A stretch of 64,000 nucleotides of DNA. Source: Chloroflexia bacterium. Lineage in GTDB: Bacteria > Chloroflexota > Chloroflexia > QHBQ01 > JADMIH01. The stretch is taken from contig DASVVE010000065.1 of NCBI GenBank assembly GCA_036386675.1, positions 11,408 to 75,407 on the forward strand, written 5' to 3'. Position 1 is the first letter of the stretch. Each line of letters begins with the position of its first letter. Below are positions 12,546-42,300 of the stretch, one piece after another. The notes under the pieces were generated by a model. That model worked only from the letters and a program-made list of their open reading frames with translations. It was not told where the DNA came from and did no database searches. Both the position numbers and the translations under genes were made by a program.

Positions 12546-13550
12546 TTGGTGCTGAGGAAATTGAGGCCGGGGTTGCTGGTCATGTCGACAGGCTATCCCG
12601 TGGCGCTGTTGCTACTGATGGGGATGCACGCCTTGATGCCTCAGCGTGGGGGCGTGCTTGCGCTCACCCAGATATTCGCACCCTATCTCTTCCTGCCGTT
12701 GCTCGCCTTGCTGACACTCGCGTTCCTGAGGGGAGCAGTGCCCCTGCGGGTCGCGCTGCTGCTTTGCATGGTGGTATTTGGTCTGCGCTTCATGCCCCGG
12801 TTGGCGTCGCCAGTTGTTGAGCCTACGCCAGGTGCGATGCAGATTACGGCACTCAGTTGGAACGTGGAAGTTGGGGGCGACCCGGCCTCAATCAGGGAGA
12901 TGCTGTTGGCAAAACAGCCTGACATCGCCGCGTTCCAGGAAATCGACTGGCTACCACTGCAACGTGACCCGGAGTTGTTGAGCCTCTACCCTCATTTCTT
13001 TGTGCAGCCGCCCTACGATGCTACATCCGGCATGGTGCTCCTGAGCAAGTTCCCCATGCTGGAGGCGCGTGTTCCTGAGCTTGATCCTTCGCTTTGGGCG
13101 CGCCCCAGGATGGTAGAGGCGAAGCTGAATGTTGGTGGGCAGACCCTCAATATCTTTTCTGTCCATCCTTCTCCCCCTGGCGGAGGGTGCCGTTATTTCC
13201 TCTGCTACGATTCTGCCCTGCGGGATGCCAGACTCTCGGCCATACGTGCCCACATTGAACCTGCCGTGCTGAAGGGGGAGGCAGTGCTTCTGGTGGGTGA
13301 CTTCAACACCACTGAGCGGGAACCTGGCTACTGGGACGTGTCGCGAGGCTTGCAGGATAGCTACAGGGCGGTAGGGGCAGGCATCAGCAACACATGGGGT
13401 CCGCCCTGGATAAGGGACCGCGGCTTTGCTCTCTTGCGCATCGACTACATATTTTCCGGGCCGAAGCTTCGCCCGCTACAGTTCGAGGTCGACTGCAAGT
13501 CGAAGAGTAGCGACCATTGTGCGCTCATGGGCAAGTTTGAGCTGCATTAG
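12546..13550 (+). CDS. Membrane-anchored endonuclease/exonuclease/phosphatase (EEP) family protein
   Basis: Three N-terminal TM helices, then EEP signatures (SWNVE, QEIDW, HPSPP, GDFNTTE, SDHCAL). TTG start per the ORF track; alternative ATG at 12582. Confidence 0.7.
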   Translation: MVLRKLRPGLLVMSTGYPVALLLLMGMHALMPQRGGVLALTQIFAPYLFLPLLALLTLAFLRGAVPLRVALLLCMVVFGLRFMPRLASPVVEPTPGAMQITALSWNVEVGGDPASIREMLLAKQPDIAAFQEIDWLPLQRDPELLSLYPHFFVQPPYDATSGMVLLSKFPMLEARVPELDPSLWARPRMVEAKLNVGGQTLNIFSVHPSPPGGGCRYFLCYDSALRDARLSAIRAHIEPAVLKGEAVLLVGDFNTTEREPGYWDVSRGLQDSYRAVGAGISNTWGPPWIRDRGFALLRIDYIFSGPKLRPLQFEVDCKSKSSDHCALMGKFELH

Positions 13551-13640
13551 AAAGAGGCTTGCACCGCAGCCGCACAAAAGGGGCACGATTGTGCGTGCCC
13601 CTTTTAACATTGCCACTTCTGACCAGCCTACCGCCAACCG

Positions 13641-14735
13641 TTATCGCTTGCTGAAGAAAGCCACCGGCGCGCCACGCTTGGCTTCCTGCTGGCGGTAGGC
13701 TACCACGCTCACCTGGGCGGCGAGGTTGCGGGCTACCTGCATAAAGGCCTCGGCTTCCGGGGTGCCGGGCGAGTCCACCACGACGGGGCGGCCTTCATCG
13801 CCACCTTCCCGGATGCGCAGGTGGAGCGGGATTTCGCCGAGGAAGGGGACGCTGTAGCGGGCTGCCGCCGCCTGCGCGCCACCGTGTCCGAACAGGTCCG
13901 TGGGGTTCTGGCAGTGGGGGCAGACGAAGGTGCTCATGTTCTCCACGATGCCGAGCACCGGCACGTTGAGCTTCTTGAACATCATCAGCGCCTTGCCCGC
14001 GTCGAGCAGCGCCACGTCCTGCGGTGTGGAGACCATCACCGAGCCTGTAAGCGGCACCGACTGCGCGGTGGTGAGTTGCACGTCGCCCGTGCCCGGCGGC
14101 ATGTCCATCACAAGGTAATCCAGCTCGCCCCACTCAACGTCGTACATGAACTGGGTGAGCAGCTTGGTGAGCATCGGGCCGCGCCAGATGACCGGGCTAT
14201 CGGCGTCGATGAAGAAGCCCATCGACATGATCTTGATGCCGTAGGCTTCCACCGGGGCGATCTTCTCGCCAACCTGCTGCGGCTTGGCCGAGGTGCCCAT
14301 CATCAGGGGCACGTTGGGGCCATAAACGTCGGCGTCAAGCAGCCCGATTCTCGCGCCGTCACGAGCCAGGGCCAGCGCCAGGTTGACTGCCACGGTGCTC
14401 TTGCCCACGCCGCCCTTGCCGGAGCCTACCGCCACGATGTTGCGCACGCCGGGTATACCCTGCCGCTCGGTCATGATGCCCTGCCGCACGCGGGAGGTCA
14501 TGTTCGCGCTCACGTCGCGCACGCCCGGTATGGCGGACACCACGGACTCCGACTGCTGCTTCAGTTGCTCCTTGACCGGGCACGCCGGGGTGGTGAGCAC
14601 GACGTTGAAGGACACGTTATTGCGGTCGTCTATGTTAAGTTCTTCTATGAAGCCGAGCGATACGATGTCGCGCCCCAGGTCCGGGTCTTTGACGACGCTC
14701 AGCGCCTGTAACACCTGCTCTTTTGTGATTGGCAT
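13641..14735 (-). CDS. apbC: Mrp/ApbC/NBP35 Fe-S cluster carrier ATPase
   Basis: N-terminal DUF59-like domain, deviant Walker A GKGGVGKST, and a CPHC motif. Start likely at the second ATG (MPITKEQ), which is preceded by GAAAGG. Confidence 0.9.
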   Translation of the reverse strand: MPITKEQVLQALSVVKDPDLGRDIVSLGFIEELNIDDRNNVSFNVVLTTPACPVKEQLKQQSESVVSAIPGVRDVSANMTSRVRQGIMTERQGIPGVRNIVAVGSGKGGVGKSTVAVNLALALARDGARIGLLDADVYGPNVPLMMGTSAKPQQVGEKIAPVEAYGIKIMSMGFFIDADSPVIWRGPMLTKLLTQFMYDVEWGELDYLVMDMPPGTGDVQLTTAQSVPLTGSVMVSTPQDVALLDAGKALMMFKKLNVPVLGIVENMSTFVCPHCQNPTDLFGHGGAQAAAARYSVPFLGEIPLHLRIREGGDEGRPVVVDSPGTPEAEAFMQVARNLAAQVSVVAYRQQEAKRGAPVAFFSKR

Positions 14736-25456: not shown

Positions 25457-25630
25457 ACAGCTTCTAAACGCCAAGACGCGGAGACGCCAAGAACCACGCC
25501 AAGCTAGGATTGTGGCACAAGCAAAAGGACCGGAGTGCAACATCACGTACTCCGGTCCTTTTTCTACTCTCCATACCTTATTTCTCTTGGCGCGTTCTCT
25601 GCGTCTCCGCGTCTTGGCGTTTAGTTACCC
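25457..25630. repeat. Approximately 170-bp cruciform-like intergenic repeat element with an embedded rho-independent terminator (copy A)
   Basis: Outer 24-bp perfect inverted repeat CTAAACGCCAAGACGCGGAGACGC / GCGTCTCCGCGTCTTGGCGTTTAG. Central hairpin GGACCGGAGT-loop-ACTCCGGTCC at 25527-25558, flanked by an A-run and a T-run. Shared core (CGCCAAG)x3 and TACTCTCCAWACCT. Confidence 0.85.
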
Positions 25631-31074: not shown

Positions 31075-31250
31075 TAGACGGAAACGCCAAGACGCAAAGA
31101 CGCCAAGGACCACGCCAAGTTTTGGCAGGTGTTCATAAGTAAAAGGAGCAGGGTACGACAGTACGTACCCTGCTCCTTTTTGTACTCTCCAAACCTCTAT
31201 ACTCTCTTGGCGCGTCCTTGGCGTCTTGGCGTCTTGGCGTTTCCGTCTGT
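31075..31250. repeat. Copy B of the cruciform-like repeat element with embedded terminator
   Basis: Outer inverted repeat AGACGGAAACGCCAAGACGC / GCGTCTTGGCGTTTCCGTCT. Central 13-bp hairpin GGAGCAGGGTACG / CGTACCCTGCTCC at 31145-31176 plus T5. Same flanking core as copy A. Confidence 0.85.
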
Positions 31251-36401: not shown

Positions 36402-37103
36402 ATGACGGGACCGGGAGTGCGGGAGTCGCAAGGAGCCGGTGCTCCTCACGAGGGCCAGCCTGTGGTGCTCAGGGGTGAGCCTCTGGAGACGGCACAGGCG
36501 GCGATGATAATGGTGCATGGCCGGGGAGCCAGGGCGGAGGACATCCTGACGCTCGTGGACGAATTGCAGCGCCCAGGAGTTGCATACATTGCACCCCAGG
36601 CCGCGGGCAACGCCTGGTACCCCTACCCCTTCATGACTCCCATGGAGATGAACGAGCCATGGCTTTCCTCCGCGTTGTACACCCTTGAGCAGACCCTGGC
36701 GAGAGTGGAAGAGCACATCCCAGCCGAGCGCATTATCTGGCTGGGATTCTCGCAAGGTGCCTGCCTTGCCACCGAATTCGTGGCGCGGCATGCCCGGCGG
36801 TACGGCGGCATTGTGGGCCTCAGCGGAGGGCTGATAGGGCCTCAGGGCACGCCACGCGACTACCCAGGTTCACTCGACGGTACCACGGTCTTTCTCGGGT
36901 GTAGCGACGTAGACGCCCACATACCTGCCTCACGCGTGGAAGAGACGGCGCAGGTCTTCCGTGGATTGGGCGGCCATGTGACGGCCCGCCTCTATCCCGG
37001 TATGGGCCACCTTGTGAATGCCGACGAGATTGCCTTCGTACAGGGCATGATCGATGCGCTGACGAATGGCGGCACGACATCGCCCTCCGGTACGGGCCGC
37101 TGA
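36402..37103 (+). CDS. Phospholipase/carboxylesterase-family alpha/beta hydrolase
   Basis: GFSQGA nucleophile elbow; AAGGGAG 5 nt upstream of the ATG. The longer track ORF from 35802 overlaps the kinase and is rejected. Confidence 0.7.
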   Translation: MTGPGVRESQGAGAPHEGQPVVLRGEPLETAQAAMIMVHGRGARAEDILTLVDELQRPGVAYIAPQAAGNAWYPYPFMTPMEMNEPWLSSALYTLEQTLARVEEHIPAERIIWLGFSQGACLATEFVARHARRYGGIVGLSGGLIGPQGTPRDYPGSLDGTTVFLGCSDVDAHIPASRVEETAQVFRGLGGHVTARLYPGMGHLVNADEIAFVQGMIDALTNGGTTSPSGTGR

Positions 37104-37119
37104 CGAGCAGCCTGTATCC

Positions 37120-37224
37120 ATGAGCGACAAGCGCCTCACCATGCGGGAAGCTGTTTCGACCTATGTTCGAGACGGCCAAACGCTGGCCCTGGAAGGCTTC
37201 ACCTCCTCCATTCCAGGTAACTAG
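37120..37224 (+). pseudogene. 34-codon remnant of a family I CoA-transferase subunit A (GctA/AtoD-like) N-terminus
   Basis: MSDKRLTMREAVSTYVRDGQTLALEGFTSS matches the conserved N-terminus of CoA-transferase A subunits (MTL.DAI.KYV.DGD.IALGGFT), then stops. Followed by an AT-rich approximately 300-bp tract. Confidence 0.6.
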
Positions 37225-37534
37225 GCACCTGCCACTTACCCTTCGATAGCCCTTCTCCTGTGCTTTTCACTTTTGATGGTTCTCCTTTATATGATGGTTG
37301 CTGAATATGTTGCTTTTCTTTATGTGAATGCCTTATTTGTTATTGCGAAAGACTTCTTTCATGTTGCTTCCCTGATAAGTGGACCGCTGGAGCTAAGTGC
37401 CTGACCTCCTCCGACCACCCAGATAATAATGCTTTTCCGCCCGGCTACCGTGAGTCCGCGTATGGGCCTTGCTTACACCTTTGCGTGTAGCGTCTAACTA
37501 AGACGAAAGTTGTAGGGCATAGAAAGAGAGTAAA

Positions 37535-37575
37535 GCCCCCGCAACGTCTCTAGGACGAAACGGGGGCTTTACTCT
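37535..37575. terminator. Rho-independent terminator (bidirectional)
   Basis: AAAGCCCCCG ... CGGGGGCTTT perfect 10-bp stem with a T-rich tail, downstream of the minus-strand gene ending at 37627. Confidence 0.65.
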
Positions 37576-37626
37576 TTAATTGCCTACAGTTCTTTGTTAT
37601 GTCTACTTATCCAAGGCATGTGAGGC

Positions 37627-38673
37627 TTATGGCTCCTTGGTAGGTTTGGGTTCTTTCGTCGGCTCAGGCTCGTCCGTTGGTTTGGGTTCCTTGGTCGGCT
37701 TAGGTTCGTCAGTGGGCTTTGGTTCTTTGGTTTCCTTTGGCTCTCTGGTCTCCTTCGGCTCCTCGGTTGGCGGGACCTCCTGGGTTGCCGTAGGCTCCTG
37801 TGTGGGTACGCTCGTAAGTATGGCTGCCTGCGTTGGGGTAGTGGTTGGGGTATGCGTAGGCTCCACGTACGGCTGGGGAGTCGGAGTTGGCGTATCGGTA
37901 GGCAAGCTCAATACAGGTGTGTTGGTAGCTGTGGACGGTGAAGGAGCGCTCTTTTCAGTCGGCGTGGCTGAAGGCTTGGGTTTGCTATTCGAGGGTTCGG
38001 CTGTAGGCTTCGGGGTGTCCGTGGGCTTGGGCTGGGAACGCTCGCTAACGGGAGAAGCCGTAGGCACACTCGTCGGAGAAGCTTCAACAGCCGGGCGCTG
38101 ACCTTCCTCAACCGGGGTCCTGCGCGGTTGAGTTGTGGCAGTTGCCGTGTGCGTCGGTTGAGCAGTATTCGTGGCGATTACCTCAGCAAGGGCTGTAGGA
38201 GTTGCCGTTGCCGTGTTCGTAGGTGTGGATGTGGGAGCGACCTGCCTTGCTTGCCTGATAGGCGTCACGGTCCTGGTGGGTGTGGGTGTGGCGGTGGTAG
38301 CAGGGGCTGGTGTGGCCTTGCCGGATTGCTCTTGAGGGGAGGGTGTTTCTGTGGGTGCCAGCCAGGTAAGGCTGGGCGACTGCGGCACCAACCCGTCGGC
38401 ATCATCGCGCTCGAACATCTCGTTGTCCTTGGCTACAGCCGCTGCTATGTCCGCGCTGAGAGGCATGTACACGACGCCGGCCGGGTCCTGGCTGTAGTCC
38501 GCCACCCTGTAGGCCTTCACTTCGCCACGTAGCCACGGCAGATTAGGCGGCAGGAGGGCCAGCCACGCGGTCGCGAATAGCGCGGCCATTCCCAACAGAG
38601 TACCTACCGCGAGGACGCGGAGCTCGCCTGAGGTCTGTCTCGAACGTGGTGCTCTAATGAGATTGGCCCGCAT
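37627..38673 (-). CDS. Membrane-anchored Pro/Thr-rich protein with C-terminal (KEPKPT)n tandem repeats
   Basis: N-terminal TM helix, long PT-rich low-complexity region, and approximately 8 hexapeptide repeats encoded by an 18-nt tandem repeat at 37630-37770. Start overlaps the stop of the cyclase gene at 38673. Confidence 0.55.
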   Translation of the reverse strand: MRANLIRAPRSRQTSGELRVLAVGTLLGMAALFATAWLALLPPNLPWLRGEVKAYRVADYSQDPAGVVYMPLSADIAAAVAKDNEMFERDDADGLVPQSPSLTWLAPTETPSPQEQSGKATPAPATTATPTPTRTVTPIRQARQVAPTSTPTNTATATPTALAEVIATNTAQPTHTATATTQPRRTPVEEGQRPAVEASPTSVPTASPVSERSQPKPTDTPKPTAEPSNSKPKPSATPTEKSAPSPSTATNTPVLSLPTDTPTPTPQPYVEPTHTPTTTPTQAAILTSVPTQEPTATQEVPPTEEPKETREPKETKEPKPTDEPKPTKEPKPTDEPEPTKEPKPTKEP

Positions 38674-40589
38674 CAGCTTGCTCGTCCTGGTCCTGTGACA
38701 GCCGCCGCAGTCGCGTTCTCAGTCGCTGGCTGTTCCGAGTGAAGCGCCTGGATCACCTCAGTCCAGTCCAGGCTCTCCACCGGCCTCTCACTTCGACCCA
38801 GGAGACCGTATGCCAGCACGGGCTTCTGCTTACCGCGCACGTCCATAGGCCCCAGGTCCTCGACCAGCCACTCTGATGGGTCGGAGAGGGCGGCCAGGGT
38901 GTGCTCGCTGAAGGCAATGTCGCAGCCGGTAAGGTCCTTCGTTATGGACTGTAGGCGAGAGGCCAGGTTTACGGCGTCACCGATGACCGTGTATTCCATG
39001 CGGGCTTCCGAGCCGATTTGTCCCGCTACGACGGTGCCGGTGTTGATACCAATGCCCTGGCGGAGCGGTGCCCAACCTTCTTTCGTGCGGTGCTCGTTGA
39101 GCCTGTCGAGGGCGGACTGCATGGCGAGGGCTGTGGACATGGCGCGGTCGGCGTGGTCCGGCATGTCCACCGGCGCGCCAAAGATAATCAGGGTCGAATC
39201 GCCCCCGAACTTGTTGACGATACCGCCGTTCTCCTGGGCCGCCTGGATGACGTTGCTGAAGTGCTCGTTCAGCAGGTCCACGATCGCCGTAGCGGAATAT
39301 TGCTCGGACAGCTTGGTGAAATCCCTCAGGTCGCTGAACAGCACAGTGACTTCCCGCTGCTCGCCGCCCAATTCTATCTGTCCGGCCAGCAGCTTGGCGG
39401 ATACCTCGGGCGACACGAAACGGCCGAACAGATCCTTGACGAACAGCGAATGCCGCAGGCCCGTCACCATGCCGTTGAAACGTGACGCCAGCACCCCTAA
39501 CTCATCCTGGCGGGTGGCTGGGATTTGCACGTCGAGGTCGCCATGGGCCACGTCATTGGAGGCGCTTACCAATTGTGCCACGGGCCTGTGTATACCGGAG
39601 GCGATCATGTGCCCGACGAATACGATCAGCAGCAGACCCAGCGCGAACAGGGGGAGCAACTTCCACACAGTTTCGCGCAGGTTCGAGTCGAGCGTAGTCG
39701 TGCTGAGCATCACCCCGTACACGCCAATGGGAGAGCCCTTGACGCCGTTACCCGGCACCACTCCCAGCGCCTCCACGTACGAGCCACCCGGCAGCGCAAC
39801 CGTCCGCAGGCGCACCTGATCACCCGCCTCGCCCACGACCTCCTGGTACCAACCGCCCGGTAGCGCGGGGACAGGCGGCCTGGCGTCGGAGGAGGTCATC
39901 ATGTACTGCGGGACCCCATCGCTGGTGTAGAAGCCCGCGCCATCGCTGAGGCTGCTCCTGGCAAGTTGCCTCATCAAGCGAGACAGGTCGGTACCCACGA
40001 GCACGGCACCCACTATATTGTCGCCAGTGCGCGCAGGCCCGGCAGTGTAGAACACAGGCCCGTTTGGGGTATTCACCACGGAAGAAGCCTTGTCCAAATT
40101 GCCGGAGGGGTGTAGCGCCGCGTCCACAAGAGCCTTCAGACCGCCGGGCACGCTGTCCAAAGGGGCTGCGCCCTGGCTCTCGGAAAGGTCCAGCAAGGCT
40201 TTCCCTTCGGCGCTCACCACTAACAGCGTGTCAAAGCCGTAATTGACGGCTTGCGGGGCGGCAAGGTTACGCAGGGCCTGAGCGTCCTTCTCGACCAGGG
40301 CGTCAGCAAAGCCTTGCGTGTAAATGATGGCACGCAGCCCCGCCAGTTGGTCTACTTCCGACTTCGTAAGGCCATCGGCGGCACCGCGCGCGGCATCCCG
40401 CAACTGGTTGTTGAAACGTGCGTGCAGCGACTCGTTGGCCGAGCTAAGAAGCACAAACGTCCCGACCATCGCGAACACCGTCGCCAGCACCAGGTAGGGC
40501 ACGATAATCTGGTTGCGCAACCGCCGGGTAAGGAAACCCGCGGCCCTGCTAAACACAGAACCCAAGTTCAGACCAGCCTTGTTAGGCAT
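38673..40589 (-). CDS. Membrane-bound class III adenylate/guanylate cyclase with periplasmic sensor domain and HAMP
   Basis: Two TM helices flanking a approximately 280-aa extracytoplasmic domain; HAMP; cyclase motifs FSDLRDFT ... KFGGDS ... GINTGTVVAGQIGS ... TVIGDAVNLASRL. Confidence 0.85.
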   Translation of the reverse strand: MPNKAGLNLGSVFSRAAGFLTRRLRNQIIVPYLVLATVFAMVGTFVLLSSANESLHARFNNQLRDAARGAADGLTKSEVDQLAGLRAIIYTQGFADALVEKDAQALRNLAAPQAVNYGFDTLLVVSAEGKALLDLSESQGAAPLDSVPGGLKALVDAALHPSGNLDKASSVVNTPNGPVFYTAGPARTGDNIVGAVLVGTDLSRLMRQLARSSLSDGAGFYTSDGVPQYMMTSSDARPPVPALPGGWYQEVVGEAGDQVRLRTVALPGGSYVEALGVVPGNGVKGSPIGVYGVMLSTTTLDSNLRETVWKLLPLFALGLLLIVFVGHMIASGIHRPVAQLVSASNDVAHGDLDVQIPATRQDELGVLASRFNGMVTGLRHSLFVKDLFGRFVSPEVSAKLLAGQIELGGEQREVTVLFSDLRDFTKLSEQYSATAIVDLLNEHFSNVIQAAQENGGIVNKFGGDSTLIIFGAPVDMPDHADRAMSTALAMQSALDRLNEHRTKEGWAPLRQGIGINTGTVVAGQIGSEARMEYTVIGDAVNLASRLQSITKDLTGCDIAFSEHTLAALSDPSEWLVEDLGPMDVRGKQKPVLAYGLLGRSERPVESLDWTEVIQALHSEQPATENATAAAVTGPGRAS

Positions 40590-40750
40590 AGGTAATTATT
40601 CTCCCGCTAAATTTACTCACTCCCTTCATTATAGGTGGGGGCTGAGCATGGGGATATAGCTACACAGGGGTATAAGCTTATGGCCGATTTGTACTAGCGT
40701 GATCGGGTGTGACAGGGAGGATTTTGGCTGCTGCGAGAGGAATCGCCTTG

Positions 40751-42025
40751 TTAGTCGACCAGGCTATTCATTGGAGAGAGCAAGGTGAGAGGGCCTGTGG
40801 CGTACAGGTGATAGACCATGCTGGCCTCAGCAGGTGTTACGCCGTCGGACGCTTCCCTGAGCCGCTGCCACTCCTGGGGCGGCACCATCAGGAAGACCTG
40901 GACCACCCTTGGGTCGAACTTCACGCCGCTCTCCGCGATAAGGATGTCGCGTGCTTCTTCGTAACTACGGGCGGGAGAATAAGGCCTATCCGAGGTGATG
41001 GCATCGAAGGCGTCCACGACGGAGAAGATACGGGCCTCGACGGGAATGTCCTCACCGCGCAGTCCGCACGGATAGCCGCTGCCGTCCCAATTCTCGTGAT
41101 GGAAGCGCACGATAGGTAGCGTCTCGCGGAGGAAGCCGAGGTTCTTCAGCAGCTTGTAGCCAATTTCGGGGTGGCGGCGCATCTCGGCCCATTCCTCGGG
41201 CGAAAGCGGCCCCGGCTTGCGGAGCACGGCGTCAGCGATGCCTATCTTTCCCACGTCGTGCAACAGCGCGCCCTGCTCGATGGACTTAAGCTGCCTGCGG
41301 TCGGTGATGCCCATCATCTTAGCCAGCTTCATGGTGAAGGTGACCACCCGCCGGCTATGCCCGTGCGTGGCGTCGTCGCGGGCGTCCAGTATGCCGGCGA
41401 GCGTCTGGAGCGTAGACCTGTGGGCCTCCTTCAGCTCGTCGTACGCCTGCTCAAGTTGCTCGGCCTTGAGGAGCTGTTCTTCGTACAGGCGGGCGTTCTC
41501 GATAGCGATAGCCGCCGCATCCGCCAATACCTCCAATAGCTCGACGTCCTCGGCCTCGAAGTCCTGCCCTGAAAGCTTGTCTACCAATTCGACCACGCCG
41601 ATTATATTGCCGTGTACCTTCAGGGGCACGCTCAACAGCTTGCGGGTGGTATAGCCGGTTTTCTTGTCTACCTGCCCGGAGAAATAGGGGCTGTTCGCGG
41701 TGTCATTCTCGATGTAGGGGGTGCCGAGCAAGGCCGTTACTCCCACCACGCTGCGGTCGTTGATGGGCAACGTCAGGCCAACCAGTTGGTCTGCTGCCGG
41801 GCCGCACGCCACGCGGAACGTGAGGCTGCGACCATCGGGGGTGACGAGCAGCAGCGAGCCACCCTCAGCCAATATCAACTCGGCGGCCGAGGCCATGATC
41901 TGGTTCAACAGCTTGTCCAGCTTAATTATGGAATTGAGCGACCGGATTATACCGTACAGCCTCCGCAGGCGGTCGGGGGATGTGTGCATATTTGTAGGCT
42001 GTAGTGGTTCAGTATGTAAGCTCAT
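40751..42025 (-). CDS. GAF domain - HD-GYP phosphodiesterase
   Basis: GAF N-terminus; HDVGK ... HHENWDGSGYP motifs. Confidence 0.85.
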   Translation of the reverse strand: MSLHTEPLQPTNMHTSPDRLRRLYGIIRSLNSIIKLDKLLNQIMASAAELILAEGGSLLLVTPDGRSLTFRVACGPAADQLVGLTLPINDRSVVGVTALLGTPYIENDTANSPYFSGQVDKKTGYTTRKLLSVPLKVHGNIIGVVELVDKLSGQDFEAEDVELLEVLADAAAIAIENARLYEEQLLKAEQLEQAYDELKEAHRSTLQTLAGILDARDDATHGHSRRVVTFTMKLAKMMGITDRRQLKSIEQGALLHDVGKIGIADAVLRKPGPLSPEEWAEMRRHPEIGYKLLKNLGFLRETLPIVRFHHENWDGSGYPCGLRGEDIPVEARIFSVVDAFDAITSDRPYSPARSYEEARDILIAESGVKFDPRVVQVFLMVPPQEWQRLREASDGVTPAEASMVYHLYATGPLTLLSPMNSLVD

Positions 42026-42300
42026 ATGCTTAGCGCAGAGGTGCCTCTTCTAAAAGGCGCAGGCTGGAACGCCGAAGGTCGGGCACCATTTACCCTGGCG
42101 CTGGTCCCTCGATACACATTGTAATGTTTGAGGTGGTGTCTTCGTAATAGCACAAGGGTACTCCACACAATCAGAAGAGAGTACCAAATAGCAGTGTGAG
42201 CACTAAAAGCCTCGGGAGACGGCAACACTTGAGGCTCCAAGCGGAAAAGGGTAGCCGGACAGAGCAGCTACCCCTTTCCCTTCAACGGCAAACGCGCTTC

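Follow-up and report, generated by a model that had tools for sequence, protein, structure and literature searches.

Pseudogene remnants and deletion scars in bacteria can arise through illegitimate recombination. The two protein families closest to the locus described here are the family I CoA-transferases, represented by GctA of Acidaminococcus fermentans (PDB code 1poi_A), and the delta-60 repeat (TIGR02608/DUF5122) proteins; the GctA family also covers proteins deposited under other names (PDB codes 5mzw and 6co6). The window, by which we mean the whole stretch of 64 kb of DNA that was analysed, holds a small part of a member of each family. The CoA-transferase stub aligns to GctA residues 2-27; compared with GctA, the window locus retains only some 10% of the A subunit and nothing of the B subunit, and therefore cannot encode an enzyme. 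Compared with delta-60 repeat proteins, the window holds the first 15 codons and the ribosome-binding site, with no propeller repeat unit left. Based on sequence comparison with relatives, we read the region as the probable scar of one chromosomal deletion of about 3.1 kb, i.e. ordinary gene loss, and give this reading a probability of roughly 0.93.

The left flank of the locus is an intact 233-aa esterase/dienelactone-hydrolase-type gene (36402-37103, plus strand; Pfam Abhydrolase_2, E 8e-20), whose product is 88-91% identical at the amino acid level to those of L001-L003 (contigs of relatives carry L numbers). It is the first gene of a conserved unit comprising the esterase and the A and B subunits of the CoA-transferase (CoAT-A and CoAT-B). 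After a gap of 16 nt, the same spacing as in L003, an ATG at 37120 opens a 34-codon ORF, MSDKRLTMREAVSTYVRDGQTLALEGFTSSIPGN (37120-37224, plus strand), which ends at a TAG at 37222-37224. The sequence-only reading had recognised in it the remnant of a CoA-transferase A subunit, and this identification holds: codons 1-32 (37120-37215) correspond to a GctA-type N-terminus, and codons 33-34 and the TAG are supplied by a junction filler. In tblastn, 28 of 32 residues (87.5%) are identical to residues 1-32 of the intact L003 CoAT-A (E 4e-13), and this comparison establishes the homology of the stub at the sequence level.

Membership of the Pfam family CoA_trans (PF01144) was taken as the full domain (about 217 profile positions) above the gathering cut-off, and the stub falls short of it: alone, it reaches 15.7 bits (E 0.01, profile positions 2-25; cut-off 23), compared with 79.5 bits over profile positions 3-216 for the intact L003 CoAT-A. 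The adjacent B-subunit gene, which is needed for a heteromeric enzyme, is missing as well. The surviving codons nevertheless have orthologues in intact A-subunit genes that occupy the equivalent genomic position. A codon alignment of the stub revealed 8 window-specific nucleotide changes, 5 of them non-synonymous (V6L, S7T, I12V, S18D), which hit residues that vary little or not at all among four intact relatives. These relatives, much more diverged, are identical at residues 1-17 and 19-28. The constraint on the CoAT stub is thus relaxed.

The second stub had escaped the sequence-only reading, and with it the fact that the deletion took three genes and not two. It is the 5' end of a delta-60-repeat (DUF5122) beta-propeller gene and consists of a GTG start and 14 further codons, VKSTGEGLSKGKWQV (37226-37270, minus strand), reading GTG-AAA-AGC along 37270-37226. 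Its translation is 86.7% identical in tblastn to residues 1-15 of the 473-aa L003 protein, a match that establishes its homology in turn; the intact L003 and L002 beta-propeller proteins start VKSIGEGL(P/S)KGKWQV. The intact L003 protein matches Pfam DUF5122 (E 1e-49) and TIGR02608 delta_60_rpt (E 2e-89), and the deleted minus-strand gene, as found in L003 and L002, is a member of the delta-60 repeat family. An intact Shine-Dalgarno site, AAGGAG (37287-37282), stands 11 nt ahead of the GTG. The open frame of the stub crosses the junction and ends at a TGA at 37199-37201, which makes it a 23-codon minus-strand ORF. The DNA upstream of the start codon (37271-37400, minus strand), now orphaned, comprises the 5' UTR and a probable promoter region of the lost gene; within the tract that separates the stubs from the right flank, no other part is as AT-rich. 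We infer that both stubs are non-functional pseudogene fragments. In L002, the beta-propeller gene (12558-13984, minus strand) is split into overlapping ORFs of 115 aa and 387 aa, the L003 gene being a single ORF of 473 aa; the split looks like a frameshift or a sequencing error, and decay of the gene may thus be under way in a further lineage.

Relatives were found by scanning species-representative genomes with the esterase gene (36402-37103), which returned five close Chloroflexia/Chloroflexota MAG contigs with best-segment identities of 78-93%, and further relatives were added through exact-protein look-ups. An esterase-based scan of metagenome contigs gave only relatives of at most 70% identity, which were uninformative on the junction. 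A CoAT-A gene of 305-306 aa begins 7-17 nt past the esterase gene in L002, L003, L004, L005, L165-L168, L170, L172 and L173; in L169, L171 and L174, the contig breaks off after the start of the same CoAT-A gene. Where the contig allows, the CoAT-B gene (254 aa) comes next, with overlapping stop and start codons between the two subunits; it was found in L002, L003, L004 (partial, contig end), L005, L165-L168, L170, L172 and L173. Apart from the window and the sister lineage described below, every sampled lineage has the intact state, outgroups at 76-79% esterase identity included. The L003 CoAT-A (306 aa) matches CoA_trans with an E of 3e-22 and has GctA (1poi_A) as its best solved relative (E 3e-43, residues 5-290); the L003 CoAT-B matches CoA_trans with an E of 3e-33. 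No CoAT protein of the intact relatives reaches an NCBIfam equivalog cut-off.

After CoAT-B, the contigs L003, L165 and L166 continue with the convergent 473-aa beta-propeller gene (minus strand), a PT-rich gene and an adenylate cyclase gene, and this convergent gene is present in both of the closest intact relatives, L003 and L002. Judged by gene content and order, the arrangement esterase, CoAT-A, CoAT-B is ancestral and the state of the window is derived. As stubs of both outer genes are left, the ancestor must have been intact, no other origin being possible. Among the relatives, the slot past CoAT-B is highly variable: besides the beta-propeller gene, its occupants are a flavin reductase gene, two His_Phos_1 genes or a gene encoding a protein of 579 aa (L005 3566-4195, L173 7686-8315, L170 3423-4976, L172 7563-9302), the esterase/CoAT-A/CoAT-B trio being constant.

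Alignment with the syntenic region of these relatives identified both the intact operon and the segment that the window has lost. In blastn, window positions 37000-37214 match L003 1115-1329 with 85.6% identity, and positions 37227-37700 match L003 4466-4948 (76%) and L002 13941-14289 (80%). An ungapped base-level comparison with L002-L005 fixes the breakpoints exactly: the CoAT-A homology stops at 37214 (...TCCTCCATTCC) and from 37227 on (ACCTGCCACTT...) the sequence is homologous to the 5' portion of the beta-propeller gene. Between them lies a filler of 12 nt, AGGTAACTAGGC (37215-37226), which aligns to neither side of the intact locus. The window has no equivalent of L003 1330-4465, i.e. 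3,136 bp comprising CoAT-A codons 33-306, the whole of CoAT-B, an intergenic palindromic element and beta-propeller codons 16-473. With L003 queries, tblastn detected nothing more of these three proteins within the 64-kb window; the best match to the CoAT-B query had an E of 0.56, in agreement with the earlier statement that the B subunit is absent. Apart from the gap, the window and the L002 and L003 contigs are collinear over more than 15 kb in both directions. The rearrangement breakpoint that had been proposed for this site is thereby confirmed and can be assigned to a deletion, the relatives having intact CoAT-A and CoAT-B directly after the same esterase gene.

The low-GC tract between the stubs and the right flank is orthologous to the intergenic regions L003 4466-4874 and L002 13941-14289, which share its relative position and orientation. 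In L002 and L003, it sits 3.1 kb from the CoAT start, upstream of the minus-strand beta-propeller gene. In a four-lineage alignment, the tract as a whole shares 76-80% identity with L002/L003, and its first 100 bp share 88-95%; positions 37227-37330, at 88-95%, are as similar to L002/L003 as these two are to each other. By block, the identity is 88% for 37271-37330, 64-70% for 37331-37400 and 85-88% for 37401-37440. On the basis of this orthology, the tract is native DNA, namely the upstream region of the deleted beta-propeller gene followed by the 3' intergenic DNA of the PT-rich gene. A hydrophobic plus-strand ORF of about 42-43 codons (37273-37404) was considered within the tract and rejected as a by-product of T-rich sequence, because it has no Shine-Dalgarno site, indels break its frame in L002/L003 and, by inspection, its substitutions are mostly non-synonymous. 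The JGI record called this ORF (42 aa; L164 8773-8901) and the 34-aa CoAT stub as genes.

The events at the locus can be pictured as follows. The ancestor carried the histidine kinase, esterase, CoAT-A and CoAT-B genes on the plus strand and the beta-propeller, PT-rich and adenylate cyclase genes on the minus strand. A deletion with its ends at CoAT-A codon 33 and, in the convergent beta-propeller gene, at codon 16 removed both CoA-transferase subunits, the terminator palindrome between the convergent genes and the beta-propeller gene. Two 5' stubs, of 32 codons (plus strand) and 15 codons (minus strand), were left facing each other, joined by the 12-nt filler, which happens to provide the stop codon of the 34-codon ORF. 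The tract with the ribosome-binding site was orphaned, and the terminator beyond it would now also halt plus-strand transcripts that run on past the esterase gene.

With respect to the joining itself, no repeat long enough for homologous recombination is common to both breakpoints, and no copy of the filler with up to two mismatches occurs within the segments of L002, L003 or L005 that the window has lost. A snap-back or templated-insertion origin of the filler was considered and dropped: its apparent inverted similarity is to the adjacent 12 nt, and 27% of random 12-mers of the window match or beat this similarity. A 5-nt microhomology (ATTCC) can be invoked only if a later insertion of 7 nt is assumed. 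The joining was probably illegitimate, of the end-joining or slippage type, and not mediated by an element.

A deletion of the same genes is also found in the sister lineage. Identity of the histidine kinase and the esterase, together with the pattern at 585 4-fold-degenerate sites, places the window with L001, to which L163 is 99.99% identical. The next clade comprises L002, L003 and L169, and L004 and L005 are outgroups. L169, with an esterase 91% identical and an intact CoAT-A, was considered as a closer sister and rejected, as it belongs to the L002 clade (nucleotide identity of 92.5% to this clade versus 85.5%). L001 and L163 are also devoid of the three genes: their deletion corresponds to L003 1205-4629 (3,425 bp), shows a 2-nt microhomology and no filler, trims the last codons of the esterase gene and ends near window position 37390, and therefore spans the two breakpoints of the window. 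It could represent an independent event or a shared deletion that was extended later. A direct repeat, GCTTCACCTCCTCC/GCCTGACCTCCTCC, was considered as the substrate of the L001 deletion and rejected, since the left breakpoint of L001 lies farther upstream, inside the esterase gene.

With regard to timing, window-specific changes amount to 10/93 in the CoAT stub and 5/100 in 37227-37338. The corresponding values at 4-fold-degenerate sites are 22.5% with L002=L003 as the reference and 10.6% for the terminal branch of the window, with L001=L002 as the reference. Under an old shared deletion, the tract would be marginally too well preserved (p about 0.04), and the stub would not (p about 0.6). 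The few changes in 37227-37338 indicate either that the deletion is fairly recent or that part of the tract is still constrained.

The segment lost from the window contained one copy of a nested palindromic intergenic element of about 165-175 bp, of which further copies occur in the window (31076-31248 and 25466-25622), in L003 (2920-3082, the copy within the lost segment) and in L002 (12392-12575 and 4680-4861). Its inverted arms of 37-41 nt contain GCCAAGAC-like octamers (AAACGCCAAGACGC..AGACGCCAAG ... CTTGGCG..GTCTTGGCGTTT) and enclose a GC hairpin with a T-run, the stem of which co-varies between copies. No Rfam family matches this element; it may represent a terminator element of this lineage that resembles a MITE or REP. 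It is conceivable, if unlikely, that the deletions in the window and in L001/L163 were independent and that each was provoked by this palindrome through hairpin cleavage, bidirectional resection and end joining. Measured from the palindrome centre in L003, the deletions extend about -1.67/+1.46 kb in the window and -1.80/+1.63 kb in L001, but any deletion of both convergent genes would appear centred on the element. If this were true, the palindrome family, with at least two more copies in the window, would be a recurrent deletion hotspot in these Chloroflexia.

Under ordinary gene loss, the question arises whether any of the leftovers still has a function, either through translation of the stub ORF(s) as micro-proteins or through an independent small-RNA gene at 37400-37580. 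The part of the tract of relevance here is a conserved intergenic block (37401-37505), which is kept also in the sister lineage L001 and has no Rfam match. It starts with a sigma-70-like site on the plus strand (CTGACC-18-AATAAT, 37401-37430) and contains a 32-nt core, GGGCCTTGCTTACACCTTTGCGTGTAGCGTCT (about 37463-37494), which is nearly invariant across four lineages and gave zero matches in an exact-pattern scan of JGI metagenome contigs. A long hairpin follows (37527-37575), bordered by one A-rich and one T-rich run; its 22-nt arms, 37527-37548 and 37554-37575, form an inverted repeat with 86% complementarity, and its folding z-score is about -5.9 on both strands. Four pairs of the hairpin show compensatory changes across the four lineages (96/136, 99/133, 110/122 and 114/118). 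The sequence features of an intrinsic (rho-independent) terminator, i.e. a GC-rich hairpin, a U-rich run and a compensated stem, are all present. The hairpin is therefore a predicted bidirectional intrinsic terminator serving the minus-strand PT-rich gene, and esterase transcripts probably now read through to it. Rfam signals on the terminator were discarded as hairpin look-alikes below threshold (ohsC, 37.5 bits, cut-off 50). More generally, no Rfam family was detected, either in the whole window at gathering thresholds or in 36900-37800 at E values up to 10, and no tRNA or tmRNA was found.

A candidate small-RNA unit can be delineated at window positions 37401-37585 (plus strand), L001 5745-5925, L003 4650-4840 and L002 14115-14305. 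It is kept in these four lineages, and its covariation is confined to the terminator stem (n=4).

We regard a function of the leftovers as improbable. The low number of window-specific changes in 37227-37338 would fit such a function, but a recent deletion explains it equally well. The promoter-like site, the retention of 37441-37505 and the hairpin in four lineages, with the L001 deletion ending just upstream, and the stable folding would all suit a small RNA; however, outside the terminator hairpin, nearly every predicted pair is invariant across the four lineages, so that no structure is supported, and no Rfam family matches. As for micro-proteins, the 23-codon minus-strand ORF does have an intact Shine-Dalgarno site, whereas the 34-codon ORF has none of its own. 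In every relative that has it, the 34-codon sequence is the N-terminus of a 305-306-aa ORF and not a conserved independent gene; it stands alone only in the window lineage, and L001 and L163 have lost it altogether. For annotation, the 34-codon ORF is best treated as a pseudogene fragment, even though it was called a gene by JGI, and the lineage should be scored as devoid of a GctAB-like CoA-transferase and of a delta-60-repeat protein.

The right flank is a gene for a PT/KEPKPT-repeat protein of 348 aa (37627-38673, minus strand), taken from the ORF list and without a Pfam family, which has syntenic orthologues at L003 4875-5909, L001 5966-7045 and L005 4237-5439. The protein has a hydrophobic N-terminal segment, and tandem 18-nt KEPKPT-type repeats encode its C-terminus. 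The start of the gene overlaps by one base the stop of a dCache/HAMP adenylate cyclase gene (38673-40589, minus strand), which suggests translational coupling of the two genes; the pair is conserved in L003 and L005. L002 (14289-14368) is devoid of 4.7 kb found in the window (37579-42266), L003 and L005, comprising the PT-rich gene, the HAMP-adenylate cyclase gene and a GAF-HD gene. This gap begins directly past the terminator hairpin and represents another lineage-specific indel at the locus.

It is very improbable that the gap is an assembly artefact, in which a chimeric join or a collapse dropped 3.1 kb present in the real genome. The source is a metagenome assembly, but the junction is 100% identical in ENA ERZ27253081 (megahit), in Logan SRR10954973 and in JGI 3300034760 (238,826 bp), and the three pipelines agree at 100% over 9-16.6 kb. 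As these three identical assemblies possibly derive from one read set, their agreement argues more strongly against an assembler artefact than against a sample-level artefact. Other observations point in the same direction: the breakpoints share no repeat able to mislead an assembler, a separate species-level lineage, L001/L163, represented by two assemblies, has an analogous larger deletion of the same genes, and the CoAT stub shows window-specific non-synonymous changes, as expected in a decaying remnant.

The low-GC tract, the direct repeat, the terminator and the PT-repeat gene that the sequence-only reading had described are all present, and it had gone on to suggest that the tract might be foreign DNA or a degraded mobile element. 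The GC content is 0.467 for 37225-37530 and 0.42 for 37227-37400, compared with 0.609 for the whole window. Nevertheless, 14 stretches of the window fall below 0.52 GC in 300-bp windows, and low GC is typical of intergenic DNA here. The 9-bp direct repeat ATGTTGCTT has two copies, at 37307 and 37361, both internal to the tract; its expectation for the whole window is 0.35, two or more copies occur in 3/100 shuffles, and it is not kept as a repeat in L002 or L003 and has no evident meaning. The view that the tract is a degraded mobile element or horizontally acquired DNA, and that the CoA-transferase operon was destroyed when it inserted or excised imprecisely, is hardly tenable: the GC of 0.42-0.47 against 0.61 and the 9-bp repeat within the tract speak for it, but the tract is present at the orthologous site of L002/L003 beside the intact operon, holds the start codon and Shine-Dalgarno site of the beta-propeller gene, shows neither terminal inverted repeats nor a target-site duplication, encodes no transposase or integrase, has no match in plasmid or phage collections, and resembles about 14 similar low-GC stretches in the window. 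The finding that it is conserved intergenic sequence thus removes the foreign origin and leaves the deletion standing.

Compared with known deletion scars, the locus shows the usual features, i.e. two truncated 5' ends, a junction that has a short filler and at most slight homology, intact synteny and a relaxed stub. The single notable point of difference is the second, enclosing deletion with a 2-nt microhomology in the sister lineage. The locus is a clean, base-resolved case of probable gene loss by illegitimate recombination in uncultured Chloroflexia, and the scar falls within known biology, representing neither a new system nor a new mechanism.
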